A stretch of 64,000 nt of DNA, taken from positions 34,121 through 98,120 of the forward strand of contig CALEYL010000031.1 in NCBI GenBank assembly GCA_937926205.1, read 5' to 3'. The stretch's first letter is position 1, and the number at the start of each line of letters is the position of its first letter. Below are positions 1 through 64,000 of this stretch, in pieces. The translations under genes and the position numbers were made by a program. This DNA comes from an uncultured Saprospiraceae bacterium (GTDB lineage: Bacteria; Bacteroidota; Bacteroidia; Chitinophagales; Saprospiraceae). The notes beneath the pieces were generated by a model. It was not told the origin of the DNA. It was given only the letters and a program-made list of their open reading frames with translations, and did not search any database.

Positions 1-887
1 GCATTTGCTCCACTGGATGGTCTGACTCCTCCTGTACCCTGACCGAATTCTGTTTGAAAATCAAAGAAATTCAAAGCTTCCTGCGTGGTATAACTGGAAG
101 AATACTCAACACCAAAGTTTTGATTCAATTTCCCGGATTTAGTCGTGATGATGATGGCGCCGTTGGCTGCTCTGGAACCATAGATTGCAGCAGCAGTCGC
201 ACCTTTTAGCACGGTCATGCTTTCAATGTCATCCGGGTTAATATTGGTTAAGTTATCCCCAAGGTCCCTGGTTTGTCTCGGACCGGCATCGTCGCGGTTT
301 GCCCCCTGGGCGCCCTGGTCAATTGGCAGACCATTGATGACAATAAGAGGTGCGTTGTTTGCTCCTGCAAAAGCTGCCTGGCCGCGTAAACGAATTTGCA
401 TACTGGAACCAGCCCCGGCAGCCGGAGGTGTAATATTCAAACCTGCTACCCGCCCCACAAGGGATTCTACCACGTTTGTGGTCCTGTTTTCCAGGAGCTG
501 GGTTGGATCCACAGTAGTTACGGAGTATCCCAGTTTCTTGGATTCCTTTCGGATACCCAGTGCCGTTACAACGACTTCATTCAAGCCCTGGGCGTCCTCC
601 TCCATGGATACCTCCAGGGTTTTTTCGTTGCCAATTGTAATTTCAATTGGCCGATACCCAATGTAGCTAAAAACTAAAATGCTGCCCGGATTGACAGCAA
701 TCTGGAATGTTCCATCCGTGTCTGAAATGGTACCAGTCAGGCTTTCTTTTACGGTGATATTTACCCCGATGAGGGGAGTTCCTTCTTTGGCAGAAGTCAC
801 TTTACCTGTTATTTGTTGCGCATTTGCTGTTATGAAGCAGCAAAGTATTGCAACAATTAGTAAAATTGGTTTGGTAAGTTTTGTCAT
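1..887 (-). CDS. SusC/RagA-family TonB-dependent outer-membrane receptor, N-terminal part (3' end lies beyond window edge)
   Basis: Not in ORF track because there is no stop in the window. Complement of 885-887 is ATG. Hand translation gives MTKLTKPILLIVAILCCFITANAQQITGKVTSAKEGTPLIGVNITVKESLTGTISDTDGTFQI (signal peptide plus carboxypeptidase-regulatory-like domain), EVVVTALGIRKE (TonB-box-like) and MTVLKGATAAAIYGSRAANGAIIITTKSG (plug). Listed + ORFs 217..903 are antisense shadows. Confidence 0.85.
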   Translation of the reverse strand, partial: MTKLTKPILLIVAILCCFITANAQQITGKVTSAKEGTPLIGVNITVKESLTGTISDTDGTFQIAVNPGSILVFSYIGYRPIEITIGNEKTLEVSMEEDAQGLNEVVVTALGIRKESKKLGYSVTTVDPTQLLENRTTNVVESLVGRVAGLNITPPAAGAGSSMQIRLRGQAAFAGANNAPLIVINGLPIDQGAQGANRDDAGPRQTRDLGDNLTNINPDDIESMTVLKGATAAAIYGSRAANGAIIITTKSGKLNQNFGVEYSSSYTTQEALNFFDFQTEFGQGTGGVRPSSGAN

Positions 888-15216: not shown

Positions 15217-18021
15217 TTAATCCTGTTCTTCAAGAAGCGCTCCGGGAGTTGTCCCGTATTGTTCCCTGAAACATTTCACAAAATAAGAGGTGCTGCTAAA
15301 ACCCGTTTGGAAAGCAATTTCGGACACATTGCCTGCTTTTTCTTTCAGCAGGATGAGGGCTTGCTGAAGCCGGAAGAGCAGGATGAATTTAGAGGCAGAA
15401 TGGTCTGTCAGGGCTTTTAATTTTCGATTGAGGTGAACCCTGCTCATTCCCACGGCGCTTGCCAGCATTTCGACACTGAATTGCTCGTTGCCGAGCTCTG
15501 TCTCGATGGTAGCGCATATTTTTTCCATAAAAGCCTGGTCAATTTCGTTGGTACCCACTTCCCATGGGTCAATAAGCGCGGATTCTGCAAAACGCCGGCG
15601 CAAGGTCTGTCGCAAGCGAATGAGGTTGCGCACCCGAACTTCAAGTTCTTTGGTATCAAAGGGCTTGACGAGGTAATCATCGGCCCCGGTTTCCAGGCCT
15701 TCAATTTTTTCTTCGTCCACCGCTTTGGCCGTCAATAAGATGACGGGTATATGGCTGGTGCGCTGGTCATTTTTTAATTCCAGGCATAATTCATATCCAT
15801 TTTTTTGGGGCATCATGACATCGCTGATGACAAGGTCGGGAAGGTGTTTTCTGGCTTTTTCAAGGCCTTCTGCTCCGTCGACAGCTTCCAGAATTTTAAA
15901 AGAATTGCAGAGTTGTTGTTTGATATATGCCCGCACATCTTCATTGTCTTCCACAATCAACACACAGTGCAACCTCGTCATCTGTTCCAGTTGAGGTGGC
16001 CTCAAACGGTTTTCCTCAACGACAAGAGGGCTAATTACTTCGTTTCTGCTCATGGCAATTGGGAGGGTAACAGGAGTTTCGCCGACAGGCGCTTCTTCTT
16101 CCGGCAGCGCCAGAGCTTTTGGTAATATGACCTTAAAAGTGCTGCCTTTTCCCGGTTTGCTGGCCACCTGAATGCTTCCATGATGCAACTCAATGAGTTC
16201 TTTTACCAGTGCCAGCCCGATGCCTGTACCCTCCTCTACCCTGATTTCTTTGTTGTGGATTTGAGAAAAACGGTCAAAAATATGGGACAAGCGGGCTTCC
16301 GGAATCCCTATACCTGTGTCGCGTACGAGGATTTCAACCTGGTCTTTGTGATCAGTCACCATTACCGAAACCTCACCACCGTCTTTTGAAAATTTGAAAG
16401 CATTGGACAACAGGTTGTAAAAAATCTTTTCCACTTTGTCTTTGTCAACGTGTAGCAACAAAAGTTCTTTTTGACTCACAAAATGGAGGCGGATGTTCTT
16501 TTTGATGGCAAGGGATTCGAACGACATGACAATGCCTTTCAACAAGGCTGCAAAATTCAGCTTTCTTAGCTTCAGTTCCATCTTACCTGCTTCCAGCTTC
16601 GACAGGTCCAAAAGCTGGTTAATGAGTTGAAGCAGCCGTTGCGCATTCCGATAGGTCAATTGCAACAGGCTTTTTTCCTCAGCGTTTCTGGGCGTTTCCA
16701 TAAGTTCTTTCACCGGCCCCAGAATCAGGGTAAGAGGGGTTCGAAATTCATGTGAGATGTTGGTAAAAAACCGCGATTTCAGGCGATCAAGCGCTTCTAC
16801 CTTTTGCTTTTCCTGACGTATGGTGTTAATTTTATCGAACAATCCATAGAACAGGATGCCTGAAAAAACAAGTGTTCCAACCTGTGCGCTGTATTCCATC
16901 CAATGGTAATAAATAATCATCCGTTGCTGCCCCAAAAGGCCAATTATGGCTCCAATCAACAGGATGCCGGCTGAGATCAGTGCTATTCGGGCAGAGGGAT
17001 CTCTTTTTAAAGCGAGCATAACGACCAGGATGAGGGTCATTACAAGCCACGCCAAAACCAAAAAATTATGGGCATACACCGTCCAGGAAGCATCTCTTGT
17101 CAATAATCTGGCTACATGCGCAAAGACAGCAACGATGATGGTAGCCACCAGATAGACCCTGTAATAGCTGGGCATACGCCGGGACAACTTAAGGTAGCTA
17201 TTGCAAAACAAGAAGGCTAAAACAAGATAACACGAAACAATGGCCTGGCCAACTGAGAAATATTCGTTTCGGATCCGATACATCAGCAGGTCATCGGCAA
17301 TGTCGCTCATTTTCAGATAATAGGCCGCGAAAACAAACACCAAAAGCCCGTAATAGACAAATACGCGCTCACCAAATGTGGCGGCAAAAAACAGGCTAAC
17401 CAAACAAAAAATCAACATGATCCCGGCATAAAAAAATTGCCAGGCATAGGTATTAATTCGCTTATCGATTAATAACTCGGCAGGATATAAGGCCAATGAA
17501 GAGACTTCTCTGAGCTTAACCGGACTGGAAAAACAGGTTCGGAAATAAAAGTTGGTTGCCCCACCGGCAGCTAATGTAACCGGAAGATAATTGCGCCACG
17601 ACCTCAGGCTTTTTTGTGTCGGGCGCATCCTTCGACCTGCCTGGCGCTGATCCGTAACCTGTCCGTTTTGAACACTGTAAACGGTAACAGAATCTGCCAC
17701 GGAACTCACCTGAAAATAAGCTTGTATGGCTTCCCTTCCCTGATTGTCTAAGCGAATTCTGGACCATACTGCAAAAGGCACACGGGGTATTTCAACTTGC
17801 CCGGGGGGATAAAACCGGTCGTCAGAAAATCCTGTTATTTCTTCAATTGAAAACTGCCGGTTCGGATCAATCAATAGCTGAATATCGGCATTTAGCCCGT
17901 AGTTTGTCAGCATCCCGTGACTGAAAACAATCGTAGCAATGGTATCCGAGGCAAAGGCAGCAGGGAGTATCGGCAAATTCAGGAAGCTTACAAAAAGGAT
18001 GCTTGCAAAAAAACGATTCAT
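15217..18021 (-). CDS. hybrid sensor histidine kinase / response regulator with 7TMR-DISM-like sensor and C-terminal AraC HTH
   Basis: Signal peptide, extracellular domain and about 7 TM segments. H-box FTNISHEFRTPLTLI. ATPase boxes RDTGIGI and GTGIGLALV. Receiver VLIVEDNEDVR...DLVISDVMMP. AraC HTH IAFQTGFSSTSYFVKCFREQYGTTPG. Confidence 0.9.
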   Translation of the reverse strand: MNRFFASILFVSFLNLPILPAAFASDTIATIVFSHGMLTNYGLNADIQLLIDPNRQFSIEEITGFSDDRFYPPGQVEIPRVPFAVWSRIRLDNQGREAIQAYFQVSSVADSVTVYSVQNGQVTDQRQAGRRMRPTQKSLRSWRNYLPVTLAAGGATNFYFRTCFSSPVKLREVSSLALYPAELLIDKRINTYAWQFFYAGIMLIFCLVSLFFAATFGERVFVYYGLLVFVFAAYYLKMSDIADDLLMYRIRNEYFSVGQAIVSCYLVLAFLFCNSYLKLSRRMPSYYRVYLVATIIVAVFAHVARLLTRDASWTVYAHNFLVLAWLVMTLILVVMLALKRDPSARIALISAGILLIGAIIGLLGQQRMIIYYHWMEYSAQVGTLVFSGILFYGLFDKINTIRQEKQKVEALDRLKSRFFTNISHEFRTPLTLILGPVKELMETPRNAEEKSLLQLTYRNAQRLLQLINQLLDLSKLEAGKMELKLRKLNFAALLKGIVMSFESLAIKKNIRLHFVSQKELLLLHVDKDKVEKIFYNLLSNAFKFSKDGGEVSVMVTDHKDQVEILVRDTGIGIPEARLSHIFDRFSQIHNKEIRVEEGTGIGLALVKELIELHHGSIQVASKPGKGSTFKVILPKALALPEEEAPVGETPVTLPIAMSRNEVISPLVVEENRLRPPQLEQMTRLHCVLIVEDNEDVRAYIKQQLCNSFKILEAVDGAEGLEKARKHLPDLVISDVMMPQKNGYELCLELKNDQRTSHIPVILLTAKAVDEEKIEGLETGADDYLVKPFDTKELEVRVRNLIRLRQTLRRRFAESALIDPWEVGTNEIDQAFMEKICATIETELGNEQFSVEMLASAVGMSRVHLNRKLKALTDHSASKFILLFRLQQALILLKEKAGNVSEIAFQTGFSSTSYFVKCFREQYGTTPGALLEEQD

Positions 18022-18195
18022 TGATGAGGCGTTTTGGCAAGTATAAGCAATTTTGCGCTTTTTCCAGACATAAGGCTGAAAAGGATTGCCGTTCTTTCAG
18101 GCCTTGAATATAGTCCTTCCTCCATACCGGCATATTTTCTAATGATAATATGCCTACAAACCAATAAATGCTTGTCGCAAAGCAAGCTTAGCGTG

Positions 18196-20100
18196 CTACA
18201 TCTCTCCAAGTAATTCTTCTAAATTCACATAAGCCCTGGCGATAATTGCGGCGCCATCCCGATCCCAGGTTTGCGGATTTCGCCTGATAAGCATCGAGCA
18301 TTCCTTAAATGCTAATGCGATGTCTTCCGTTTGACTTTTGAACTGAGAAGTGCTATTATCAATCAACCTGGGTAACTTTTCATAGTAATCATTTTTTTCC
18401 CGGAGAAATCCTTTAAATTCTTCTGCTAATGCAACGCTTTGACCATTTTGGATTTTCTGGTAGTGGAGGTTCAGAAAATCCAAATCACTCCTTACGACCT
18501 CTTTTTGGAACAACACGAATTCCCGAAATTCTTCTTCAAGAAAAGCAATTTGCGTTTCAACAAAATCACGATCACTCGGATTTGGACAGAGGGTCAGGTA
18601 TTTTCGGTAGTTCTTGATTGCCTCTTTATAAAAATCATTGGCTTCCTGCATAAGGGCAAGATTGTAAGCGCCATGGCAATCGTCGGAATGCTGCTTCGCG
18701 AAAGCCGTGTAGACACTCAAGGCTTCATCGAAGTATTCTTCCTTTATTTGGGTAACCCCCTTCATAAAATTGCTGACAGAGGGAGTGGGGAGACCCGATA
18801 GCGCTGGACTCTCTTTTGGCTGGTAAACCCGGTTGAATTTACGAAATGCCCGAACGAGTTGCGTTTGGTTTTGCACATTCAGATACTTCCCCCCTGATAT
18901 TTGGGAGAGATACTGTAAATCACGTTCAGCAGGTGAACCCGGAGGAATATTGAATCCAACGGTATAATAACTTACTCCAACATTGGCGCTGTTTGAAAGC
19001 CCGCATTTGCCCGCATCAACAAAAATAAAGCGGTTTCGTTGCAATGGTGCAGAATTATAGGTTCCGGGGGGTCGGATATTCCCGCAAGTACCCTGCCCAT
19101 CACTGAGAATAATCAGCTTTCCTCTTTTTTGGCCCTCCTTTTGCAAATGCGCCGCCATTTTGCATTCCGCTGCACGAATGGCATTGTCTAAAGGAGTACC
19201 CCCACCGGCGAACATACTGTTGATTTGACTTTGTACGGTAATTAAATCATCGGTAAATGCTGAAATTTCGATGGTCGGATCGGGAACGCAGTCTCCACTG
19301 AAGCCATAGACGGCAACTTGATTCTTTACTCCCTGACTTCCTGATTGCAGGCCATCGATGGTAATTTTACTGGCAGCTTTTGCCTGTTCAATTTTAGGAA
19401 TTGTACCCCCGCCGTTTTCGTTCATACTGCCGGAAAGATCGAAGAGAAAAAGGGTGGAGGTGGTTGTACATTTATTGTAATTCTTATTTAACTGTTTTAA
19501 GCTCTTAATATAATCTATTGGAAGCCTCAAAGTATAAGAAGGTTTTTTTAAATTACAGACTTGGGAAGCTACCTCATCTACAAAATCAATACAATTTTCA
19601 GCCAATAGATTATATTTTTTGGCATCCCATTTATCTTTTATACTTAAAGCCTTATAAAAATCTTTTTTTGACACTTCTACAGATAACCCTATGTCTTTTT
19701 GTCTAGCTAAATCGTTTCTAATACTTCCTTCAACGTACCCAAACAATCCTATACCATCTTTAGGATAAAAACCCCAACAAGCTACAATTACCGTCTGTTG
19801 TAATAAGTTGTCCTCTTTGAGATAAGTAACAAATGAATGACCAGTAAGAGTACTATTATCTGCATAAAAAATAACCCAATACTTTTCTTCATTTATTTGG
19901 GTATGTATATTTACATTGCTAAATCCCATAAGAGTATTTTGCAATTTCAATAACAAAATAAATATCAATACAACTGTTTTTTTATTAAAAAATATATTAA
20001 CAATCATACTATTAAAAAATTCACAAAACAACTGATATGAAAATTGCAACTTTATCATATAACTTTCTATTTTCTGCATGATTTTATTTTCAGAATTCAT
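18196..20100 (-). CDS. fusion protein: permuted papain-like (PPPDE/LRAT-like) domain, then vWA domain, then TPR-like helical C-terminus
   Basis: His88 (TGHSFVTY) and Cys170 in KYNLLAENCIDFVDEVA resemble the PPPDE/LRAT Y-x-LL-x-NC-x-x-F motif. vWA MIDAS residues LFLFDLSGSM, GGGTPLDNA and ILSDGQG. C-terminal TPR-like helices. Hydrophobic segment TVVLIFILLLKL near the N-terminus. The true start may be an internal Met. Confidence 0.75.
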   Translation of the reverse strand: MNSENKIMQKIESYMIKLQFSYQLFCEFFNSMIVNIFFNKKTVVLIFILLLKLQNTLMGFSNVNIHTQINEEKYWVIFYADNSTLTGHSFVTYLKEDNLLQQTVIVACWGFYPKDGIGLFGYVEGSIRNDLARQKDIGLSVEVSKKDFYKALSIKDKWDAKKYNLLAENCIDFVDEVASQVCNLKKPSYTLRLPIDYIKSLKQLNKNYNKCTTTSTLFLFDLSGSMNENGGGTIPKIEQAKAASKITIDGLQSGSQGVKNQVAVYGFSGDCVPDPTIEISAFTDDLITVQSQINSMFAGGGTPLDNAIRAAECKMAAHLQKEGQKRGKLIILSDGQGTCGNIRPPGTYNSAPLQRNRFIFVDAGKCGLSNSANVGVSYYTVGFNIPPGSPAERDLQYLSQISGGKYLNVQNQTQLVRAFRKFNRVYQPKESPALSGLPTPSVSNFMKGVTQIKEEYFDEALSVYTAFAKQHSDDCHGAYNLALMQEANDFYKEAIKNYRKYLTLCPNPSDRDFVETQIAFLEEEFREFVLFQKEVVRSDLDFLNLHYQKIQNGQSVALAEEFKGFLREKNDYYEKLPRLIDNSTSQFKSQTEDIALAFKECSMLIRRNPQTWDRDGAAIIARAYVNLEELLGEM

Positions 20101-20464
20101 TAAAATTGTTTGTAATGGTAAATTTAATTTTTCTAACTCGAATTTTAAAAAAAGAAAAAAGTTTTAAAAACGTTTTCATTACTTTATCTACTTTTTAGCA
20201 TTGCGCGAAAAATTTTCTCACAAATATATTAAACATGGAATCAAGTGGATTGAAAAATGTATTAAATTCTCAAACCCACTTGGTTACATGCAACTTATAC
20301 TTACTTATTTCAAGCAACTATAACATGTGCTAAAAACACCTTTTGCTTGAAGCTTGACTGTACTTTTCCGACCTAAAATTACATCAAAAAGCCTCTTTTT
20401 GTTTTTTATTTCATTAAATGATTGAACTCATTGTGATTTATTGATTTTTTACACCACCCATGTA

Positions 20465-22039
20465 TTATTTCCCTATTATATTTGAATATTTATCCCCATT
20501 AACCTTCATCTTCTCCCAATCTGTATCCACATAAACCGAGCCTACCAGTTTATTGACTGCCTGGGCGCGCTTTTTTGCTTTAGGGTGAGAGGTATAAATG
20601 GTATCCAAAATTTGTTTAGCCAAAACGTCACTTCCAGCTACACTTAGTTTGGTCATCACACTCGCATTACTGGTGCTCAAACGATTAGACTTTAGGGAAT
20701 TCATTAAGTCTGAGGTGATTTTTGACTGGAAATTTTGATCAGAAGTCAGTTCCTGCATTTTATTCCAAAACGAAGCTGCTTCCCGAATATCGTAACCCGC
20801 TTGATAAGCATAGTAAAGGCCGACACGATCCGCTTGCGCCTCCATTTTTGTTTGAGGCTTCATCAAATTAGAAACAGCAGCTGGTGTGATGGACTTTGAC
20901 AATTGGTTGACAGATCTGACCATATCCAAGGGAAGTGATGGCGCCAGCTGAATAATTTGCTTGTTTAGCGTCTTATCAAAAAAAACATCAGCTATCGTTC
21001 CAATATCTGCCATCAATCCGGTGTTTTCATACCGTTCTCGGCCATGCTCATGAGTAACATGGGCAATTTCATGTCCAAGAACTGCCGCAAGCTGCGCTTC
21101 GTTTTCTATAATGTTCAATAATCCGGTGTGGATAAAAATCATGCCATTTGGAAAAGCGAATGCATTGGGAACAGGGTCATCAATTACATAAAATCTATAA
21201 TAAACAGCCCCTTGATTGGCTTGTTCTTTTTTTGCCCGAGCAGGCAACAGCTTGTAGCCAATCTGGTTGATATACCCCTGAATTTTAATATCATTGGTTA
21301 ATTTGTAACTGTATTGACCAACTTTGATTTCACCATTATACAAGCTCATATTTATGGCTTTCAGGTCGGCTGGAATATTTTGCAACCCTGTCGTTGCATC
21401 CGTCAAATTTCCATTAACCGCAGCCAGCAGTTCTTGCTCTGGTTTTCCAAAACCGTTTCGACAGAGTTCTGCAAAGTTGGCATTTATGACCCCCTGCTCG
21501 TCCATTTTTCCTTGAATTTCCACATAGAACTGCCCTGGGGATACTAAGGGGCTCTCAAAATTTGGCACAACGAGTCCGCTACATTCACATTTATTTTTCT
21601 TACTCCCTTGAAGCCTTACCCCCGGAAGTAACAAAACAGGATAGCCATCTATGATGGCCTTGTCATCCCGAAACCCTTCAAACAAGCCGTATATTTTGAT
21701 GCGTCCGTCTGCAGAAATATCTGTTTCTATGGAAAGCGCAAAATATTCTTCACCGATAAGCTCGTAAGATAACTTGTTGATCAATGTTCCTTCCTGAATT
21801 TCTTCAGGAGTAATTTTTTTGTTTTTTTCTCCTTTAAATGTGGTTTTGTCATTGATAATTAATGGTAATTCTGTACCAAAGTAACTGATGTTGATCTCGG
21901 AAAAAGGTGGATTAAAGGATGTGACTTCTACCTCTTCAAACGCCCCTTTCTGGGCTAAAAGGGTGGAGGATGTTGTAAAGCTAATTAAGGTTATTGCCAA
22001 TAGAGTTATATTAGCAACAAAGCTATTAGAAGAGGCCAT
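20465..22039 (-). CDS. secreted M48-family zinc metallopeptidase with N-terminal beta-rich domain
   Basis: Signal peptide. HExxH in LGHEIAHVTHEHG. Downstream EAQADRVGLYYAYQAGYD is typical of M48. Confidence 0.85.
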   Translation of the reverse strand: MASSNSFVANITLLAITLISFTTSSTLLAQKGAFEEVEVTSFNPPFSEINISYFGTELPLIINDKTTFKGEKNKKITPEEIQEGTLINKLSYELIGEEYFALSIETDISADGRIKIYGLFEGFRDDKAIIDGYPVLLLPGVRLQGSKKNKCECSGLVVPNFESPLVSPGQFYVEIQGKMDEQGVINANFAELCRNGFGKPEQELLAAVNGNLTDATTGLQNIPADLKAINMSLYNGEIKVGQYSYKLTNDIKIQGYINQIGYKLLPARAKKEQANQGAVYYRFYVIDDPVPNAFAFPNGMIFIHTGLLNIIENEAQLAAVLGHEIAHVTHEHGRERYENTGLMADIGTIADVFFDKTLNKQIIQLAPSLPLDMVRSVNQLSKSITPAAVSNLMKPQTKMEAQADRVGLYYAYQAGYDIREAASFWNKMQELTSDQNFQSKITSDLMNSLKSNRLSTSNASVMTKLSVAGSDVLAKQILDTIYTSHPKAKKRAQAVNKLVGSVYVDTDWEKMKVNGDKYSNIIGK

Positions 22040-51772: not shown

Positions 51773-52300
51773 TCAATCCTCCTGTTTCTTATCCCCTTTG
51801 TTTTTTTCAACGGACCGGGCCATTTTCGTCACCTTATTCAGGTTGATTTTGCCCAGAAAGCTAATCAGGACAAACTCGTCATCGTAAGAAAGCAGCAGCA
51901 ATTCATCTATGGTTTCCCCATTGCTTCCTTTAGCCAGAAACTCGAGGTTGGTGCCATCTTTTTCTTTTACCGTCATCAGGACTTCATATTCTGATGTGTT
52001 GATTTTTGACTTGAATTCCTTGTAGAATTTGTCGGGTGTCGTTTCTGTCGTGAGGATTCTCAATGATTTGATGTCCTTGGCGATGTCTTTCATGACCTCG
52101 CCTTCTTCTTCTCCATCGAAGACCATGTTATTGACTTCAATATTCCCAAGCATTTCAAACATTTTCGGGCTGATGTAAACCACCGAAAAACGGCTGTCTT
52201 CGACATACTGGGAAAAGTACTTGTCAATGGCATTGTCCTGCGCAGAAAGCATGGTGGACAAGCCGGTTGTAAAAAGCAGAACAGTCAGGAATTTTTGCAT
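51773..52300 (-). CDS. DUF4252-like secreted protein (paralogue)
   Basis: Start moved to MQKFLTVLLFTTGLSTMLSAQ (175 aa). The 73 upstream codons of the listed ORF (TTG start) are translated repeat DNA (KSSNFQIF...). Confidence 0.6.
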   Translation of the reverse strand: MQKFLTVLLFTTGLSTMLSAQDNAIDKYFSQYVEDSRFSVVYISPKMFEMLGNIEVNNMVFDGEEEGEVMKDIAKDIKSLRILTTETTPDKFYKEFKSKINTSEYEVLMTVKEKDGTNLEFLAKGSNGETIDELLLLSYDDEFVLISFLGKINLNKVTKMARSVEKNKGDKKQED

Positions 52301-52677
52301 AACGATTAAAATTTGATGATTTGAAAATTTTAAAATTTGGTGATTGGGATTCGGGATGCCCGGAAAGTTGTGTTCATCAAAGTACTTTTCTGGCATTATT
52401 GATTTGATGATTTGAAAATTTGATGATTTGAAAATTTGAAAATTTGATGATTTGAAAATTTGATGATTTGATGATTTGGTGATTGGGATTCGGGATGCCC
52501 GGAAATTCGTATTTATCAAAATGCTTTTACGGCATTGGAAACTTGAAAATTTGAGAATTGGGATTCGATATGCCCCCTGTTTCCGGAATGCCTCATTTTC
52601 AAATCATCAAATCAACTCATCTTCAAATTAATCCCCTCATTTTCAAATTTTCTAATAAACACATCTTCAAATTAACA
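52301..52677. repeat. gene-less repeat locus: two good copies and one degenerate copy of the 65-nt element, each preceded by 8-nt-periodic arrays, then an oppositely oriented array
   Basis: Copies at about 52335-52397 and 52475-52537 (tttggtgattgggattcgggatgcccggaaa...ggcatt). Degenerate copy at about 52541-52595. Arrays are gatgattt/gaaaattt. Inverted words attttcaaatcatcaaatc and catcttcaaatta lie at 52596-52677. Confidence 0.8.
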
Positions 52678-53139
52678 TCAATCCCCCTTCTCCAAAATCC
52701 GCACGCCCCGATTCAACCCCTCTGACACTTTCATCAAAGCATTTCGGGTAATTTGCAGGGCTTCTTCTTTCGTTTTGGGCTCGTATTTTGACCAGTCAAT
52801 GGTTGCCACCGGAGCTTCCGGAGCAGGGCTTATTTCCCGATACACCAAAGTACCAGCGATCAGGGCCAACGCAAAAATGGCTGCAGCGGCCGCAACCCGA
52901 ATGGGATTCAGGCGGAAACGACGCGCCTGTGGCACAGATAATTCAGCATCAAGGCGCCGCTCAAAACCAGCAGGCAGGGAACGCGACTTTTCAGCATCCA
53001 GAAAGCGAAACAAAGGGATGTATTTTTCCAGTTCTTTTTCCACTACTTCCTGCGAGTTGAAGTAAGCTTTCAGACGTTTTTCTTCTTCCAGCGTCGTTGT
53101 TCCGGCAAAGTATTTTTCGATCAGCGTTTTATAATCCAT
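52678..53139 (-). CDS. putative single-pass anti-sigma factor
   Basis: Start at MDYKTLIEKYF, overlapping the sigma gene stop by 11 nt. One TM (IRVAAAAAIFALALIAGTLVY). The call rests on position immediately after the ECF sigma gene. No zf-HC2 motif seen. Confidence 0.5.
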   Translation of the reverse strand: MDYKTLIEKYFAGTTTLEEEKRLKAYFNSQEVVEKELEKYIPLFRFLDAEKSRSLPAGFERRLDAELSVPQARRFRLNPIRVAAAAAIFALALIAGTLVYREISPAPEAPVATIDWSKYEPKTKEEALQITRNALMKVSEGLNRGVRILEKGD

Positions 53140-53644
53140 GATTTTCTGTTTGGAGATACAAGCTCCGGACGGCATTGCGCGCCCGGAACAAATTCACTTT
53201 CACCTGATTCATCGGCAGATCCAGTAATTCAACAATTTCCTGATAACTCATTTCTTCTATGTCGCGCAGGTGCATGACCAGGCGCTGTTTTTCCGGTAGT
53301 TGCTGCATCAGCTTCAGCAGATGTGCCATGGTATCTGAATATTCGGCAGCTGCTAAAGGAGTAGGCTCGTGATCTGCCAGCCCGGGCAGGGATTCTGCTT
53401 CCAGATACCCCCTTCGTTGCTTCCCGCTGCGGATTTTATCAATGGCCTGATTTTTTACCAGCTTCATACACCAGGCCTCCACATTCCGGATGGCCGGCCA
53501 GGCATCCTGCTGACGCCATGCTTTTACCAGTACCTCCTGCACGACATCCTGCGCTTCTGCGTCATCGCTCAGGATGCGCAGGGCAAGTCGGTAGAGTTTG
53601 TCTTTAACCGGCAGGATATGTTGCTTGAAGTAGGTTAAGCTCAT
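53129..53644 (-). CDS. ECF-type RNA polymerase sigma-70 family factor
   Basis: Region 2 DAEAQDVVQEVLVKAW. Region 4 LPEKQRLVMHLRDIEEMSYQEIVELLDLPMNQVKVNLFRAR. Confidence 0.9.
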   Translation of the reverse strand: MSLTYFKQHILPVKDKLYRLALRILSDDAEAQDVVQEVLVKAWRQQDAWPAIRNVEAWCMKLVKNQAIDKIRSGKQRRGYLEAESLPGLADHEPTPLAAAEYSDTMAHLLKLMQQLPEKQRLVMHLRDIEEMSYQEIVELLDLPMNQVKVNLFRARNAVRSLYLQTENHGL

Positions 53645-54587: not shown

Positions 54588-54971
54588 TTAAAGCGCTTCG
54601 TCTTCTTCTTTTAACTCCCGCTCTAATTCTTCCATGAATATGAATTCAATGCTTTCTTCAACGGTAGGAATGATGGTCAATACCGTATCCAGTCTCGAAA
54701 TTTCAATCAGCTTTTTCACACTTGGCTGCACGATGCCCGTTAACACAAACGAGCCATTCATTTTCCAGAGGCGATTGGCTGTGAGAATGGCACTGAGGCC
54801 GGATGAATCAATGTATTTTACATCAGTAAGGTCGAGAATCAGGTTCACGATACCCTCATTGGCGAAAATAACAAATTCAGATTTGAGGTTAGGGGCAAGC
54901 ATGGAATTCAGGTTCTCTTCTTCCAGGCGAAACACAGCATATTTCTCCTTCTTGTCAATCGAATATTTCAT
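54588..54971 (-). CDS. STAS-domain protein (anti-sigma-factor antagonist, SpoIIAA-like)
   Basis: 127 aa. LILDLTDVKYIDSSGLSAILTANRL is a STAS signature containing the conserved Ser. Confidence 0.8.
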   Translation of the reverse strand: MKYSIDKKEKYAVFRLEEENLNSMLAPNLKSEFVIFANEGIVNLILDLTDVKYIDSSGLSAILTANRLWKMNGSFVLTGIVQPSVKKLIEISRLDTVLTIIPTVEESIEFIFMEELERELKEEDEAL

Positions 54972-59034: not shown

Positions 59035-59161
59035 CTTTTGAATGTCGAACACTGAATATCGAACAAGGAACCGCAGAAGTGAAGCAGTCTTGCTCCACTT
59101 CGACATTCGATATTCGACATTCAATATGCTGCTGTTCTAAACTCTTTTGAATGTCGAACAC
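59035..59161. repeat. composite direct/inverted repeat built from GAATGTC/GAACACT-type heptamers
   Basis: 18-nt direct repeat cttttgaatgtcgaacac at about 59035 and about 59144. gaatgtcgaacactgaatatcgaa (59040-59063) is roughly the reverse complement of ttcgacattcgatattcgacattc (59099-59122). Confidence 0.7.
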
Positions 59162-59330: not shown

Positions 59331-62300
59331 ATGACGATACCCTTACGCACCCTAAACCTTACTTTATTCTTCCTGGCCGCAACTTTTTCCGGCGTACACG
59401 CCCAAACCTGCCAGGCGGGCTTTAGTTATGTCCTCAACGGTTTGAGTGTTCAATTTACCCAGGAGTCTACCGCTTCGTCAACCATTACAGGGTTCCTTTG
59501 GGATTTTGGCGACGGCGCCAGCTCCACTCTGGCCAATCCGGAGCATACCTATACCGATTCAGAAGACCTGATGGTCTGCCTGACGATCACAACGGCAGAT
59601 GGCTGTACCGACCAGTTTTGTGCAGAAGTGGAACCCTGCCAGCTTAATTTGACAGTCTCAGTAGGCGATTGTAATACAAACGGTGAAATACCACTCGGAA
59701 TTAATATTACAGATGTATTCGGCAACGCGCGGGAGATCAATATTTCCATAGACGGCGTATTGCTGCCGGGAAGCCCGTTTCTCATCGACAACGACCTGCC
59801 TGTTTTTACCAATGCACTGATCAACGGCGACGGCCTGGTACATACCATTTCTGTGGTTTCTACCCACAATGCAGCCTGCACGGCAAGCTATACTTTCACA
59901 GCGCCGGACTGTGCCTCCAGTTGCTTCCTTTCCGGATTAAATGTGGCGATTGCTCAGGGCGCCATAAAAACAGTGAATGTTGGCAGTAACTTTTTCAACC
60001 CTGTAAATACCACCATCGAAGTCGGTGAACTGGTGCGTTTCAATTGGACAACTGGTGGTCATACCTCAACTTCTGATGCCACATCAGGTCCCGACAGCTG
60101 GAATTCAGGGCTATTGGGCGCCGGAGCAACCTACGATGTGCGCATCAAAAATCCGGGCATTCATCCATATTATTGTATTCCACACGGTGGTCCCGGCGGT
60201 GTGGGCATGTCGGGTATGATTGTTGCAAACTGCCCGAACGGGAATAATTTCACCCTGCAAATTACTTTCAATACCACACAGGCCGGAGCTCAAGGCTACA
60301 ATTTCCGGATTGATGGCGTCCTGCAGCCGGGGAGTCCGTTTGCTTATAATGGAACGGGGTTGCAATCGCTAAGCGCAACAATGGCCGGCGACGGACAGGA
60401 TCATACTTTTGAGATTGCCGATGCAGGTGATCCGGGCTGTTCCCAAATTCGCACCTTTACTGCACCTGATTGCGGTGCGGCGCCAACGTGCAGCATGAGC
60501 GTCAGTGCCCAGCAAAATGGCGGCTGCAATGTTGCCAATCAAATAGAGGTCAGTGTACAGATCAACAGTGTCAATGGTGGAGCAGCCGGGTTTGAGGTTC
60601 TTTTTGACGGCGTGGCAAGCGGCGGACCTTATGTGTACTCGGCCACGGGTGTCACCACCGTTTCCATTTTCGTTCCCGGCGATGGCCAATCCCATACCAT
60701 CAGCGCCAGAGACCTGAATACACCAACCTGCGAAGGCAGCACGCTTTTTGTTGCGCCTGATTGCTCCACTCCCTGCAATCTGGGTAACATCACAGCAGCA
60801 ACCGGCGGAGGGATTACCCATATAGTAGAAGTGCAGGATTTTCAGTTTGTCCCCCAAAACCTCACCATAGCTGCCGGGGATCGGGTAGAATGGCACTGGA
60901 CAGGCTCTGTCGCACATACCAGTACCTCTGACGCTGCAACTGGCGCAGACAGCTGGAACAGCGATTTGCTGCACCACGGCGCCACGTATCTATCACCCGT
61001 ACTCTCTGCCGGCATCCATCCCTACTATTGCATCCCGCATGGCGCGCCTGGCGGTATAGGCATGACCGGTGTCATTACCGTTCAGGCCAACTGCGCCAAT
61101 GGACAGGTTCCTATTGCGCTGAGCTTTACGGAATCAGGCGGTGGATTTGGCGGTTTTCAGGTATGGGTTGACAGTGTGGCGGCAGGCACTTTTGCTTACG
61201 CTGCTTCCGGGTTTGATACCATAAACGTTCTTGTACCCGGCGATGGGATGCCACATACCCTGCTGGTTCAGGATGCAGAAAATCCAGATTGCAGCGCCTC
61301 GGTAGCCATCACTACGCCGGATTGCAATGCTTCCACCTGCCGTTTGACTTTGCAGGCTCAGGAAAATGGCCCTTGCGATACGCTTTTGCAGCTGCCGGTA
61401 GAAGTATTGATTACCGATTTAGGAGGCGGAGAAGGTGGTTTCATCCTTTTTGCCGATAGTGTTCTGGTGGATACTTTTTTATACGGGGCCAACGATTCTA
61501 CCCTCGTATCGCTATTGCTTCCGGGTGACGGACTCCCTCACATTTTCTTCGCGGCAGACCTGTCCGATTCAATGTGTATTGCTTCCGATACCCTGACTAC
61601 CCCCAATTGCATGCTCCCATGTCAACTGTCCAACCTCCTGCTGGCAAGTGGCGGGGGCGGCGATCCGGTTATACATACGGTAGAAGTTGTGGATTTTTCA
61701 TTTATCCCCAATCACATCAATGTTCAGGTAGGAGACATCGTCCGCTTTATCTGGAATGGCCATGTACAGCATACAACTACTTCAGATGCCATTACCGGGC
61801 CCGACGTCTGGAACAGTGGTTTGCTGGGCCATGGGAGTGTTTTTGATGTCACCATAACCAGCGAAGGGGTGCACCCATATTATTGTATCCCGCACGGCGC
61901 GCCAGGGGGCATCGGCATGGCAGGAGACATAACAGCTACGCCGCCCTGCCAGGATGGAATGGTCAGCGTTGCCGTTTCATTCGACGCTACGATGGGCAGC
62001 AGCCAGGGCTACGAGGTTTTTGTGGATGGAGTGCAAACTGGTGGCCCATTTGCTTACAATGATCCGAATGGCAGCAACCAGACCACTGTGATGGTTGCGG
62101 GTGACGGACTGACACATAACATCAGCCTTCAGGATGTGGATGGTGCGGAATGCGGGATCAGCGCTGACATACAAACCCCTAATTGCGCGGGCGGTTGTAA
62201 TATCGCCAATCTGGACATTCAATTTCCGGATACAACCTGTAACAACGGGATGATCCCGGCGAGCTTGTCCTTTACAGCAGCGGGAAGCGGCGATCAGGGA

Positions 62301-64000
62301 TACCATGTGTTTATTGACGGCATTCTGGAAGCCGGAAGTCCGCACGACTATACGCCCGGCGGCTTCAATACCCTGGACTTCCAGATCAACGGAGACGGAG
62401 GAATGCATGCACTCCGTATAGAAGACGTCGGTAACACAACCTGCATTGCCGATACTATTTTTCATGCGCCGCAATGCCCTGATGCCTGCCAAATCCGCTT
62501 ATCAACAGAAATGGTAGGGACTTGTAACGGGGAGGGACTGGTCAGTTACCAGATCATGGTGATGGCTTCCAATGTGGGAAGCAATGGTTTTAACTTTTTT
62601 GTGGACAATTTACCTTTGGCTGGAAACCCCTTCCCATACGGGGCTGGCGGCATCAGCCTGGTTGACATTGTCCTTCCCGGCGATGGACAAATCCACCTGA
62701 TAGCTGTTGCAGACGCCAGTCAGGGTTCGTGCAGCGCTTCGGCGAGTATTCAAAGTCTGAACTGTGGCATTGGTTGTAATTTGGTTGTAAATGCAGTCCA
62801 GTCCGGCGCCTGCAATACTGTGGACCAGGTGCCTTTTAATGTAATGGTTCAGGCCACGACGCCGGGTAATGAAGGATTTGAACTGTTAATCGATGGCGTA
62901 CCTGATCCGGGCAGTCCTTTTGTTTATCAGGCTAATGGCCTGACAACGGTTGCGGTGCTTTTGCCGGGAGATGGTTTGGCGCACAGCCTACAAGTCATCG
63001 ATGTCGCTTTTGCGAATTGCCGGGACTCTGTCATTGTCCATACGCCGCTCTGTGGCGCCAATTGCGCCATGGGCAATTTTTCGATAGCGTACAATGTGCC
63101 CCAAACCTTTACGGTTGAGGTGCGCGACTTTAATTTTTTTCCAAATGATTTAACCGTGAGCGTGGGCGATACCGTTCGCTTTTTGTGGACCGGCCAGATC
63201 CCGCATACTACCACGTCGGATGTACTGGGTGGGCCGGACTCCTGGAACAGCGGCCTTCTGGGTCAGGGCTCGGTGTATGATTTGGTGATCGAATCGACAG
63301 GAAACCACCCCTATTACTGCATTCCCCATGGTAGTCCGGGAGGCATTGGGATGTCAGGGATCATTCGGGTACAAAATCCCTGCGATGATGGCCGATTGAG
63401 CGTCCGCGTTACTTTTAGCGCCATCAACGGCAGTTTCGAGGGTTATTCCGTTTACCTCGACGACGATGAATTCATTACCAGTGGTTTGTATCAACCTTCC
63501 GGAACAAATCAGGTGGTTTTTACTGTTCCGGGGGACGGCGCTTTGCACCATGTTCTGATTCAGGATGCAACCGATCCCGACTGCCAGTTGCACGAACATT
63601 TTGACATGCCCGATTGTGGCGATCCATGCTTTGGGTTTGAAGCGCAGTTTGCCTATCAAATCAATTATCAAACCCTCGAGGTTCAGTTTACAGATGCCTC
63701 AGCCGGAATGCCACAAACCTGGATGTGGGCATTTGGCGACGGGCAGACTTCAACAGAAGCAAATCCCGTTCATACTTTTGAACCTGGGGCCTACCCCGTC
63801 TGCCTCGCTATAGAAAACGATGATCTTGGTTGTGTGAATGTTTTTTGCGACACCCTCTATCTAAATCTGGTCGTATGCGAACCCTCTTTTGTTTTGGAAC
63901 ACGATGGATTGACGGTGTTTTTCAAAGACCATTCACAAACAAGTCAACCCATCAACAATTGGATCTGGACTTTAGGTAATGGCCAGCAGATCGTCGGAGA
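59331..64000 (+). CDS. giant secreted multi-domain protein: signal peptide, PKD, 4 cupredoxin (type-1 Cu) domains, 10 Cys-framed modules, PKD, PKD... (3' end beyond window)
   Basis: Not in ORF track because there is no stop in the window. I hand-translated the frame from ATG 59331 to 64000 and found no stop. N-terminus is MTIPLRTLNLTLFFLAATFSGVHAQ. PKD signatures are WDFGDGASSTLANPEHTY and WAFGDGQTSTEANPVHTF. The listed antisense and off-frame ORFs here are shadows. Confidence 0.85.
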   Translation, partial: MTIPLRTLNLTLFFLAATFSGVHAQTCQAGFSYVLNGLSVQFTQESTASSTITGFLWDFGDGASSTLANPEHTYTDSEDLMVCLTITTADGCTDQFCAEVEPCQLNLTVSVGDCNTNGEIPLGINITDVFGNAREINISIDGVLLPGSPFLIDNDLPVFTNALINGDGLVHTISVVSTHNAACTASYTFTAPDCASSCFLSGLNVAIAQGAIKTVNVGSNFFNPVNTTIEVGELVRFNWTTGGHTSTSDATSGPDSWNSGLLGAGATYDVRIKNPGIHPYYCIPHGGPGGVGMSGMIVANCPNGNNFTLQITFNTTQAGAQGYNFRIDGVLQPGSPFAYNGTGLQSLSATMAGDGQDHTFEIADAGDPGCSQIRTFTAPDCGAAPTCSMSVSAQQNGGCNVANQIEVSVQINSVNGGAAGFEVLFDGVASGGPYVYSATGVTTVSIFVPGDGQSHTISARDLNTPTCEGSTLFVAPDCSTPCNLGNITAATGGGITHIVEVQDFQFVPQNLTIAAGDRVEWHWTGSVAHTSTSDAATGADSWNSDLLHHGATYLSPVLSAGIHPYYCIPHGAPGGIGMTGVITVQANCANGQVPIALSFTESGGGFGGFQVWVDSVAAGTFAYAASGFDTINVLVPGDGMPHTLLVQDAENPDCSASVAITTPDCNASTCRLTLQAQENGPCDTLLQLPVEVLITDLGGGEGGFILFADSVLVDTFLYGANDSTLVSLLLPGDGLPHIFFAADLSDSMCIASDTLTTPNCMLPCQLSNLLLASGGGGDPVIHTVEVVDFSFIPNHINVQVGDIVRFIWNGHVQHTTTSDAITGPDVWNSGLLGHGSVFDVTITSEGVHPYYCIPHGAPGGIGMAGDITATPPCQDGMVSVAVSFDATMGSSQGYEVFVDGVQTGGPFAYNDPNGSNQTTVMVAGDGLTHNISLQDVDGAECGISADIQTPNCAGGCNIANLDIQFPDTTCNNGMIPASLSFTAAGSGDQGYHVFIDGILEAGSPHDYTPGGFNTLDFQINGDGGMHALRIEDVGNTTCIADTIFHAPQCPDACQIRLSTEMVGTCNGEGLVSYQIMVMASNVGSNGFNFFVDNLPLAGNPFPYGAGGISLVDIVLPGDGQIHLIAVADASQGSCSASASIQSLNCGIGCNLVVNAVQSGACNTVDQVPFNVMVQATTPGNEGFELLIDGVPDPGSPFVYQANGLTTVAVLLPGDGLAHSLQVIDVAFANCRDSVIVHTPLCGANCAMGNFSIAYNVPQTFTVEVRDFNFFPNDLTVSVGDTVRFLWTGQIPHTTTSDVLGGPDSWNSGLLGQGSVYDLVIESTGNHPYYCIPHGSPGGIGMSGIIRVQNPCDDGRLSVRVTFSAINGSFEGYSVYLDDDEFITSGLYQPSGTNQVVFTVPGDGALHHVLIQDATDPDCQLHEHFDMPDCGDPCFGFEAQFAYQINYQTLEVQFTDASAGMPQTWMWAFGDGQTSTEANPVHTFEPGAYPVCLAIENDDLGCVNVFCDTLYLNLVVCEPSFVLEHDGLTVFFKDHSQTSQPINNWIWTLGNGQQIVG
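59961..60230 (+). other. cupredoxin domain 1 (type-1 Cu ligand pattern H...C-x2-H-x7-M)
   Basis: IKTVNVGSNFFNPVNTTIEVGELVRFNWTTGGHTSTSDATSGPDSWNSGLLGAGATYDVRIKNPGIHPYYCIPHGGPGGVGMSGMIVA. Confidence 0.75.
60812..61087 (+). other. cupredoxin domain 2
   Basis: ITHIVEVQDFQFVPQNLTIAAGDRVEWHWTGSVAHTSTSDAATGADSWNSDLLHHGATYLSPVLSAGIHPYYCIPHGAPGGIGMTGVITVQ. Confidence 0.75.
61668..61937 (+). other. cupredoxin domain 3
   Basis: VIHTVEVVDFSFIPNHINVQVGDIVRFIWNGHVQHTTTSDAITGPDVWNSGLLGHGSVFDVTITSEGVHPYYCIPHGAPGGIGMAGDITA. Confidence 0.75.
63102..63377 (+). other. cupredoxin domain 4
   Basis: QTFTVEVRDFNFFPNDLTVSVGDTVRFLWTGQIPHTTTSDVLGGPDSWNSGLLGQGSVYDLVIESTGNHPYYCIPHGSPGGIGMSGIIRVQ. Confidence 0.75.

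Follow-up and report, generated by a model that had tools for sequence, protein, structure and literature searches.

A predicted Ig-like repeat with apparently nested cupredoxins in a T9SS cargo protein of Saprospiraceae

The window studied here is a 64,000-nucleotide stretch of contig CALEYL010000031.1 from an uncultured Saprospiraceae bacterium. Towards its 3′ end, a single plus-strand frame opens with an ATG at 59331 and is still open at base 64000, where the window ends. This frame (59331..64000, +) is the 5′ 4.67 kb (1556 of 1771 codons) of a gene for a secreted, multi-cupredoxin and multi-module type IX secretion system (T9SS) cargo. Database protein P0001 (1771 aa), which is 100% identical across the window part, is the full-length product. 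In the protein, Pfam and NCBIfam scans pick up PKD domains and four plastocyanin-type cupredoxins but nothing else, and the ~900 residues left over are ten homologous copies of a module 78–94 residues long. We consider it probable that this module is an immunoglobulin (Ig)-like stalk or spacer domain of secreted T9SS surface proteins, with cupredoxins nested in some of its copies. Judged by profile searches, it appears to represent an uncatalogued family.

All ten copies are encoded on the plus strand. Six are in the long form (Ca–strand A–Cb…Cc-x10-Cd): M1 (59637..59912), M3 (60489..60764), M5 (61338..61610), M7 (62196..62477), M8 (62487..62765) and M9 (62775..63053). The other four, M2 (60231..60473), M4 (61092..61325), M6 (61947..62186) and M10 (63381..63617), are module bodies reaching from Cb to Cd. 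The assignments come from alignment and a leave-one-out hidden Markov model (HMM), joined by conservation among homologues for M1 and M2 and by structural models for M3 and M4. Scored against an HMM built from its nine fellows, each module reaches 54–90 bits, while none of 200 composition-matched shuffles exceeds 10 bits. This bears out the ten-copy conserved repeat that an original prediction, made by reading the sequence, had placed at 59640–63630. Identity of the copies to the first module is 18–37%, and D39, the G-D-G, the His and three Cys are invariant in the ten-module alignment. One module precedes the first copper domain (Cu1), two follow Cu1, two follow Cu2, four follow Cu3 and one follows Cu4. 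The order after the first three had been predicted correctly, but the Cu1–Cu2 and Cu2–Cu3 spacings given as 851 and 856 nt are both 855 nt when taken between the codons of the copper-ligand Cys.

The motif is also maintained among homologues. Ninety-eight protein clusters have the cupredoxin-plus-module architecture, with 4–15 modules each, and in 812 modules of 98 clusters the Cys are kept at 99–100%, D28 at 92%, Y39 at 86%, G53 at 90%, D54 at 78% (plus 15% Asn), G55 at 88%, H58 at 86% and D64 at 89%. The spacing of the last pair is H-x5-D, not H-x6-D as initially described. The initial pattern also overlooked a fourth conserved Cys (Ca), together with an 11–13-residue strand A, ahead of the first Cys that had been aligned. 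Each module consequently has four Cys, not three, in the order Ca, 11–13 residues, Cb, ~67 residues, Cc, 10 residues, Cd, and the next Ca follows 3 residues after Cd.

To describe the fold, we used an AlphaFold2 (AF2) prediction for M3, with an alignment of 80 diverse long-form modules as input. The model (predicted local distance difference test (pLDDT) 94.8, predicted template-modelling score (pTM) 0.84) has seven β-strands joined by links of 2–6 residues: A (8–19), B (24–34), C (41–45), C′ (48–54), E (61–69), F (74–81) and G (88–94). This is the seven-strand, two-sheet sandwich with hairpin connections of the Ig-like (E-set/FnIII-like) superfold, in agreement with the disulfide-framed Ig-like fold suggested at the outset. 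A Foldseek search of the model against the PDB returned nothing at E ≤ 1e-3; the top matches were generic Ig C1-set, TRAP-beta and PKD domains (template-modelling score (TM) 0.5–0.6, probability 0.97–1.0, E ≥ 0.04). The module is thus modelled as an Ig-like sandwich without a close solved relative.

When the motifs are mapped onto the predicted strands, Ca stands ahead of strand A and Cb at its end, and Cc precedes strand G and Cd follows it. The D-G forms the two-residue C–C′ turn and the G-D-G the E–F turn. Disulfides Ca–Cb and Cc–Cd are implausible, because a 12-residue strand separates Ca from Cb and the distance between Cc and Cd is similar. Since all inter-strand links are short and strand directions alternate, strands A and G should run parallel, an arrangement that would make Ca–Cc and Cb–Cd the likely disulfides, stapling the first strand to the last at both of their ends. 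Mean-field direct coupling analysis (DCA) of 1437 long-form modules was dominated by artefacts of the strand A indel and of Cys occupancy, and did not settle the pairing.

The four modules that follow a cupredoxin depart from the long form. Their Cb lies directly after the copper domain, and a Ca with a short strand lies in front of it. In M2, this detached strand A (Ca plus 11 residues; 59922..59957, +) is followed by cupredoxin 1 (59958..60230, +). The equivalent pairs are 60774..60809 (+) and cupredoxin 2 (60810..61091, +) for M4, 61620..61655 (+) and cupredoxin 3 (61656..61946, +) for M6, and 63063..63098 (+) and cupredoxin 4 (63099..63380, +) for M10. Bookkeeping of Cys, the likeness of the leading segment to strand A, a splicing test and an AF2 unit model all point to insertion of the cupredoxin between strand A and Cb, at the tip of the A–B hairpin. 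Modules and copper domains had been described as interleaved; at the level of sequence, this evidence shows the copper domain nested within the module instead.

Counted from the Cd of the preceding module up to Cb, 363 of 370 homologous units have four Cys and no more: Cd, Ca, the Cys that ligates copper, and Cb. The segment ahead of the copper domain has the consensus C-S-[IL]-S-N-L-x-V..G-G, compared with C-S-L-S-L-S-A..G-G-C in the long form, and 60% of these segments outscore the random 95th percentile for strand A likeness. In the splicing test, which used an HMM trained solely on modules of cupredoxin-free proteins, joining the leading strand to Cb…Cd gained 9.8 ± 3.1 bits over the module body alone. 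A genuine long-form strand A gained 8.4 ± 2.5 bits, a shuffled strand 3.2 and a control strand 1.5. The AF2 model of the unit formed by the Ca-strand, Cu2 and M4, built from 48 sequences (pLDDT 94.6, pTM 0.77), shows the leading segment as a 9-residue β-strand (unit residues 6–14, pLDDT ~90), and the detached strand of M2 corresponds to it. DCA of 534 units finds that the entry and exit stubs covary (columns 15–114 and 16–109/110), in weak support of insertion, and links a copper-domain loop weakly to the P-D-C end of the module (57–189..191); the top couplings reflect copper loops that are lost jointly.

The inserted domains are plastocyanin-like. All four are matched by the Pfam Copper-bind model (98.9 bits for the window protein, with 4 stretches) and by the NCBIfam plastocyanin model TIGR02656 (112.9 bits), and the Cu2 unit model retrieves plastocyanins in Foldseek at TMt 0.75–0.81 and ~30% identity. 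Searched as a two-domain unit against the PDB, the same model finds cupredoxins only and no two-domain analogue, with TMq at most 0.41. The H…C-x2-H-xn-M ligand set on a cupredoxin fold is that of the type 1 (blue) copper plastocyanin family, with ligands H-C-H-M, and copper binding is predicted. Among 537 units, 495 keep H-C-H-M, 13 have H-C-H-Q and 29 have lost their ligands. Post-cupredoxin modules form a subtype with Phe at core column 13 (98%), His (93%) and Asp (100%). Non-canonical ligand units, 13 of them with a Gln axial ligand, occur in P0097, P0098, P0153, P0155, P0156 and others, and the ligand-less pseudo-cupredoxins (29 of 537; for example H-S-D-F or R-S---M) sit in host modules that are intact.

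We then compared the module with known families, querying Pfam (24,736 models) and NCBIfam with the whole protein, two family consensus sequences and, for Pfam, 80 single modules. Pfam gave no above-threshold module match with the whole protein, the 80 modules or the two consensus sequences (E ≤ 10). In NCBIfam, only cupredoxin models match the protein, and nothing relevant came up for the consensus modules or for P0124 and P0130, which are all-module proteins. DUF4183 (PF13799) touches 7 of the 80 modules below threshold (best E 0.0059) and neither consensus sequence. ChitinaseA_N (PF08329) matches 1 of 80 modules at E = 0.0033, with no domain-level match above the gathering score; against homologue P0082 it sums to 25 bits over the whole protein with no individual stretch passing. 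The ChitinaseA_N model also gathers a weak score on plain PKD arrays, and therefore signals a general Ig-like flavour rather than membership. The best match of the module profile to PDB sequences is the chitinase A N-terminal domain, at E = 0.15. SprB repeat, HYR and CARDB gave no match to the whole protein at E ≤ 1 or to the consensus sequences at E ≤ 10, and are absent from the 25 most frequent of the 41 families matching the 80 modules.

PKD domains flank the modules in the same protein. That the module is a divergent PKD domain would fit its size, Ig-like fold and T9SS-cargo context, a short resemblance in the F–G hairpin (x-I-x-V-x-D....C beside Y-x-V-x-L.....GC in PKD) and the PKD domain among the Foldseek matches at TM 0.48. 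However, the Pfam PKD and PKD_4 models are strong on the true PKD domains and match none of the ten modules; in the 80-module scan, 0 of 80 match PKD or PKD_4 and a single module matches PKD_3 (E = 0.09). Aligning 300 modules with 150 PKD domains (PF00801/PF18911) from the same proteins by hhalign gave a probability of 2.8% over 19 columns, and the four-Cys frame and a sequence free of W-x-F-G-D-G set the modules apart. PKD identity is essentially refuted at the family level by the hhalign and Pfam results, and we hold it to be very improbable; shared ancestry of the two within the Ig-like/E-set superfold is conceivable. The initial statement that the module could not be assigned to a familiar family, and is not PKD, CARDB, HYR or a SprB repeat, is accordingly upheld against Pfam, NCBIfam, the PDB profile search, Foldseek and the hhalign comparison. 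Literature searches (cupredoxin/PKD/T9SS, DUF5777, plastocyanin/Saprospiraceae/PKD, and cupredoxin/Bacteroidetes/extracellular electron transfer) found nothing relevant.

The module is far more widespread than the copper proteins. Searched exhaustively by HMMER, 1.84 billion representative proteins, clustered at 50% identity, yield 1026 carriers at E ≤ 1e-3, of which 680 also pass E ≤ 1e-10; a single protein can hold up to ~35 module stretches. A word-indexed search of 5.8 billion proteins with the ten-module profile gave no match, a limit of the word index, since the exhaustive search recovered these 1026 clusters. The cupredoxin motif is absent from most of the best 150 of the 1026 module-bearing clusters. 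Co-occurrence with cupredoxins is therefore not a property of the module, which is a building block in T9SS cargo generally rather than a copper-domain partner.

One cupredoxin-free architecture combines Peptidase_M10, TIG, 8–19 modules and a T9SS tail, and other cupredoxin-free proteins have modules plus a T9SS tail or PKD domains. Pfam detects nothing in P0130 (3451 aa). Across 1024 modules taken from cupredoxin-free proteins, conservation near 100% is confined to the four Cys, followed by F40 (82%), D81 (80%) and Y56 (75%). The His position holds His in 16% and Tyr in 32%, and the two turns are mostly N-G and G-D/N-G. The cupredoxin-free relatives include P0123, P0125, P0127, P0131 and P0134 as well as P0129, P0130 and P0133; the module appears in such proteins as a stalk under M10 (matrixin-like) peptidase heads, others consist almost wholly of modules (up to ~35), and one is annotated as proprotein convertase P-domain-containing.

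These observations suggest how the protein may be built. The module would be a ~95-residue, seven-strand Ig-like sandwich acting as the spacer or stalk domain of proteins exported by Bacteroidota through T9SS and kept at the cell surface. Successive modules, joined by linkers of 3–8 residues, would form a rod. Within the Saprospiraceae/Lewinellaceae subfamily, of which this gene is a member, every second to fourth module would carry a plastocyanin-like type 1 copper domain, so that the stalk would display four copper heads here and up to ~twelve in relatives. The 1026 clusters, the Peptidase_M10 proteins with 8–19 modules, the all-module proteins with T9SS tails and the sorting domain of P0001 all support a stalk role. 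It is a module of a familiar kind, namely a stalk repeat of secreted Bacteroidota proteins with an Ig-like fold and a disulfide frame.

Long tandem arrays in T9SS cargo are also typical of adhesins, and the module could instead bind carbohydrates or surfaces, as a carbohydrate-binding-module-like or adhesin domain whose array anchors the cell, or the copper heads on it, to polysaccharide or mineral particles. Aromatic residues kept across the family (F40 82%, Y56 75%) and scattered sub-threshold matches to ChitinaseA_N, CE2_N, CIA30, NPCBM and Laminin_G_3 would suit such a function. Every one of these matches, however, lies below the curated per-domain cut-offs and they vary from module to module, while the ChitinaseA_N profile picks up ordinary PKD repeats and the PDB match to ChiA is at E = 0.15. 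We regard a binding function as improbable.

It had also been speculated that the module holds its own metal site. Each module would then bind Cu, Zn or Ca through the D-G Asp, the G-D-G Asp, the His and the later Asp, making the protein a copper sponge or a Ca-rigidified rod. Post-cupredoxin modules do keep the His in 91–95% and the strand-F Asp in 95–99% of cases, and in the predicted topology the turns at D-G and G-D-G would share the ‘top’ of the sandwich with the His and the P-D-C end. The His (position 75) and the Asp (position 81), however, fall on a single β-strand, six positions from each other, and both have the parity of core residues I77 and V79. Predicted strand F (74–81) would place them at opposite ends of the sandwich, ~20 Å apart, and for this reason they could not form one site; the proposed convergence of the two in GDG-xx-H…D is unsupported by the model. 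In the 1024 cupredoxin-free modules the His falls to 16% and the turn Asp is mostly Asn, so any metal site would be a novelty of the subfamily.

Nor does the His follow the copper. It persists in units whose copper ligands are destroyed, being kept in the host module of 95% of 42 units that are not H-C-H-M, ligand-less ones included, and therefore tracks lineage or the presence of an inserted domain rather than copper binding. In favour of a metal role, the protein has a weak NCBIfam match to the copper-resistance cupredoxin CopI (E = 8e-9), albeit far below the cut-off. One homologue adjoins a gene for a CDF transporter and a CusB-like gene with a heavy-metal-binding domain, which would suit a role in metal handling, but these neighbours are seen at that locus only. 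Copper efflux as a conserved context was dropped, as the two other homologues compared lack it. Sequences of the type D/N-G and G-D/N-G are classic turns, and in the model the His and Asp are best read as turn formers and core caps, not as one metal site. A metal site within the module thus seems unlikely on the predicted structure, and we give the metal-binding alternative about as little credence as sugar binding.

Several points weigh against the stalk interpretation, or against parts of it. The His is found in 91–95% of post-cupredoxin modules and 75–78% of long-form modules of the copper subfamily, compared with 16% elsewhere, and a purely structural view fails on this enrichment unless lineage inertia or contact with the inserted domain accounts for it. 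A spacer-only role leaves the conserved surface residues Y56 and F40 unexplained. Which Cys pair in disulfides, how the detached strand A packs against the module body and the His/Asp geometry are read from a predicted secondary-structure string and the rules of Ig folds. The unit model's pTM of 0.77, although good, does not decide for a fixed arrangement of the two domains, and the DCA signals are weak and in part artefactual.

The copper unit has a narrow taxonomic range. In a scan with one genome per species, it occurs only in Saprospiraceae, Lewinellaceae, Phaeodactylibacter, Neolewinella, Candidatus Opimibacter and Chitinophagales bins, bar two contigs, and the best genome match to the window protein is 63% identical. 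The two exceptions (L022 and L056) are contigs of 1.2–1.5 kb with the copper unit, binned with Gammaproteobacteria and Marinobacter metagenome-assembled genomes; they probably reflect mis-binning rather than lateral transfer.

At ~44 distinct homologous loci, essentially all of those with enough downstream DNA (among L001–L078, for example L002:12241-15315; all outside the window), five genes lie directly downstream of the cupredoxin gene in the same order and direction. They encode a ~255-aa c-type cytochrome with PSCyt1 and cbb3-type domains and a CxxCH motif, a ~120-aa CxxCH protein, an OB-fold (tRNA_anti-like) protein, YceI and a DUF5777 outer-membrane barrel. By inspection, both cytochromes begin with lipoprotein-like signals. 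A pair consisting of a Y_Y_Y histidine kinase and a response regulator is often found near the five-gene cluster. A second class of locus (L013, L016, L020, L026, L028, L033, L034, L036, L037, L054 and L058) has a divergent YceI gene (33–40% identity) upstream of the cupredoxin gene, with the downstream cluster absent within reach; because several genomes hold two copies, these loci suggest paralogous systems.

The conserved cytochrome/YceI/DUF5777 cluster points to a role of the type 1 copper domains in a cell-surface redox system in the Saprospiraceae/Lewinellaceae homologues. More tentatively, and with a good deal less confidence than we place in the stalk assignment, the Saprospiraceae and Lewinellaceae may have an as yet undescribed system for electron transfer at the outer surface, with the multi-cupredoxin protein as its extracellular arm. 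In it, type 1 copper arrays, inserted into a disulfide-stapled Ig-like stalk, would replace the multihaem cytochromes of Mtr- or Cyc2-type conduits, exchange electrons with two monohaem c-type lipoprotein cytochromes and act with the OB-fold protein, YceI and the DUF5777 barrel. In such a system, the subfamily His could form part of an interface or relay towards the inserted copper domain. Centres that stand at least two modules (~4 nm each) apart would be unlikely to relay electrons along the chain, and multivalent display is therefore likelier than a ‘wire’.

Beyond the repeat recognised at the start, the present analysis adds the size of the family, the apparent nesting of cupredoxins in the A–B hairpin and the conserved cytochrome/YceI/DUF5777 neighbourhood. 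The module by itself is a moderate finding, because new Ig-like repeat families turn up regularly. The family is nevertheless a large uncatalogued one (more than 1000 clusters at 50% identity, up to ~35 copies per protein) that makes up much of what is unannotated in giant T9SS-secreted Bacteroidota proteins, and a Pfam-style model would annotate thousands of ‘hypothetical’ regions. It also offers what looks like a natural case of a redox domain grafted into the hairpin of a structural repeat, of engineering interest as a two-staple display scaffold. Aerobic Saprospiraceae are abundant in activated sludge and on marine particles. The gene cluster makes copper-based surface electron transfer testable in the cultured strains Phaeodactylibacter xiamenensis KD52 and Neolewinella agarilytica DSM 24740.

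A putative signal peptide, MTIPLRTLNLTLFFLAATFSGVHAQ (59331..59405, +), was assigned in the translation from its hydrophobic core and AQ cleavage motif, and is followed by PKD domain 1 (59409..59636, +; Pfam PKD/PKD_4). PKD domain 2 and the beginning of PKD domain 3 (63627..63998, +) close the window part, with Pfam PKD_4 at residues 1448–1503 and support from the C terminus of P0001. Beyond the window end, P0001 continues with further PKD domains and then a C-terminal T9SS type A sorting domain (TIGR04183/PF18962; TIGR04183 at 35.2 bits against a cut-off of 23). P0001 thus has both the N-terminal signal peptide and the C-terminal type A sorting domain of T9SS cargo. In the 500-bp intergenic region 5′ of the gene, the direct repeat TTCGACATTCAATA occurs twice (59099–59127) and may be a regulatory site or chance. 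The genes further upstream, a prolyl oligopeptidase-like open reading frame (ORF) and a membrane protein on the opposite strand, are uninformative.

Across the whole window, tRNA and Rfam scans found no feature. Two AT-rich tandem repeat arrays, at 52400–52484 and 52591–52681 (with 8/24-nt and 44-nt units), are located within or close to the 5′ end of ORF 51773–52519, whose N-terminal SSNFQIFK repeats are probably translated non-coding repeat. Translations read by eye suggest an extracytoplasmic function (ECF) sigma factor at 53129–53644 (−) with an overlapping putative anti-sigma gene (52678–53175), and a STAS-type anti-sigma antagonist at 54588–54971. G+C content dips to 0.37–0.40 at 18001–22000, against ~0.48 elsewhere, in a region that spans ORFs 18196–20100 and 20465–22039 (−) and may be acquired DNA.

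Set beside known systems, the module is most readily compared with PKD (PF00801/PF18911) and other E-set Ig-like repeats of T9SS cargo, which are likewise tandem seven-strand spacers of ~80–95 residues on the same polypeptide. Unlike PKD, it has its own four-Cys frame (Ca-x11-Cb…Cc-x10-Cd), lacks the PKD WxFGDG and shows no profile similarity. The best sequence-level neighbour with a solved structure is ChitinaseA_N (PF08329; PDB 3ars), with which it shares a Y-N-V-Y-F-D-G-V…G-x-G…E-I-E-x-C-D…C stretch over strands C–G; inspection of this stretch finds the ChiA domain without the four-Cys frame, and the likeness does not establish membership. The bacterial Ig-like (BIg) extender domains of giant adhesins, such as MpIBP region II and SiiE, form rods that are stiffened by Ca2+ at the junctions and exported by the type I secretion system. 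In them, dozens of ~100-residue β-sandwiches with very short linkers make a rod that projects functional domains, much as is proposed here for arrays of up to ~35 copies, but in our protein export is by T9SS and rigidity would come from two disulfides per module. No sequence relation to these extender domains was found, in searches not aimed at them.

The copper domains resemble plastocyanin cupredoxins in their H-C-H-M type 1 ligands, ~30% identity and TMt of 0.75–0.81. In contrast to free soluble carriers, they would be extracellular, nested in the A–B hairpin and present at 4–12 per chain, and their ligand loop is C-x2-H-x7-M. Outer-membrane electron conduits include Cyc2 and rusticyanin of iron oxidisers and the MtrCAB porin–cytochrome complexes. 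At the level of the gene cluster the likeness to Cyc2 and MtrCAB lies in a putative extracellular redox array encoded together with c-type cytochromes and an outer-membrane β-barrel; here, however, there is neither a multihaem cytochrome nor a fused cytochrome–porin, and the extracellular centres would be type 1 copper.

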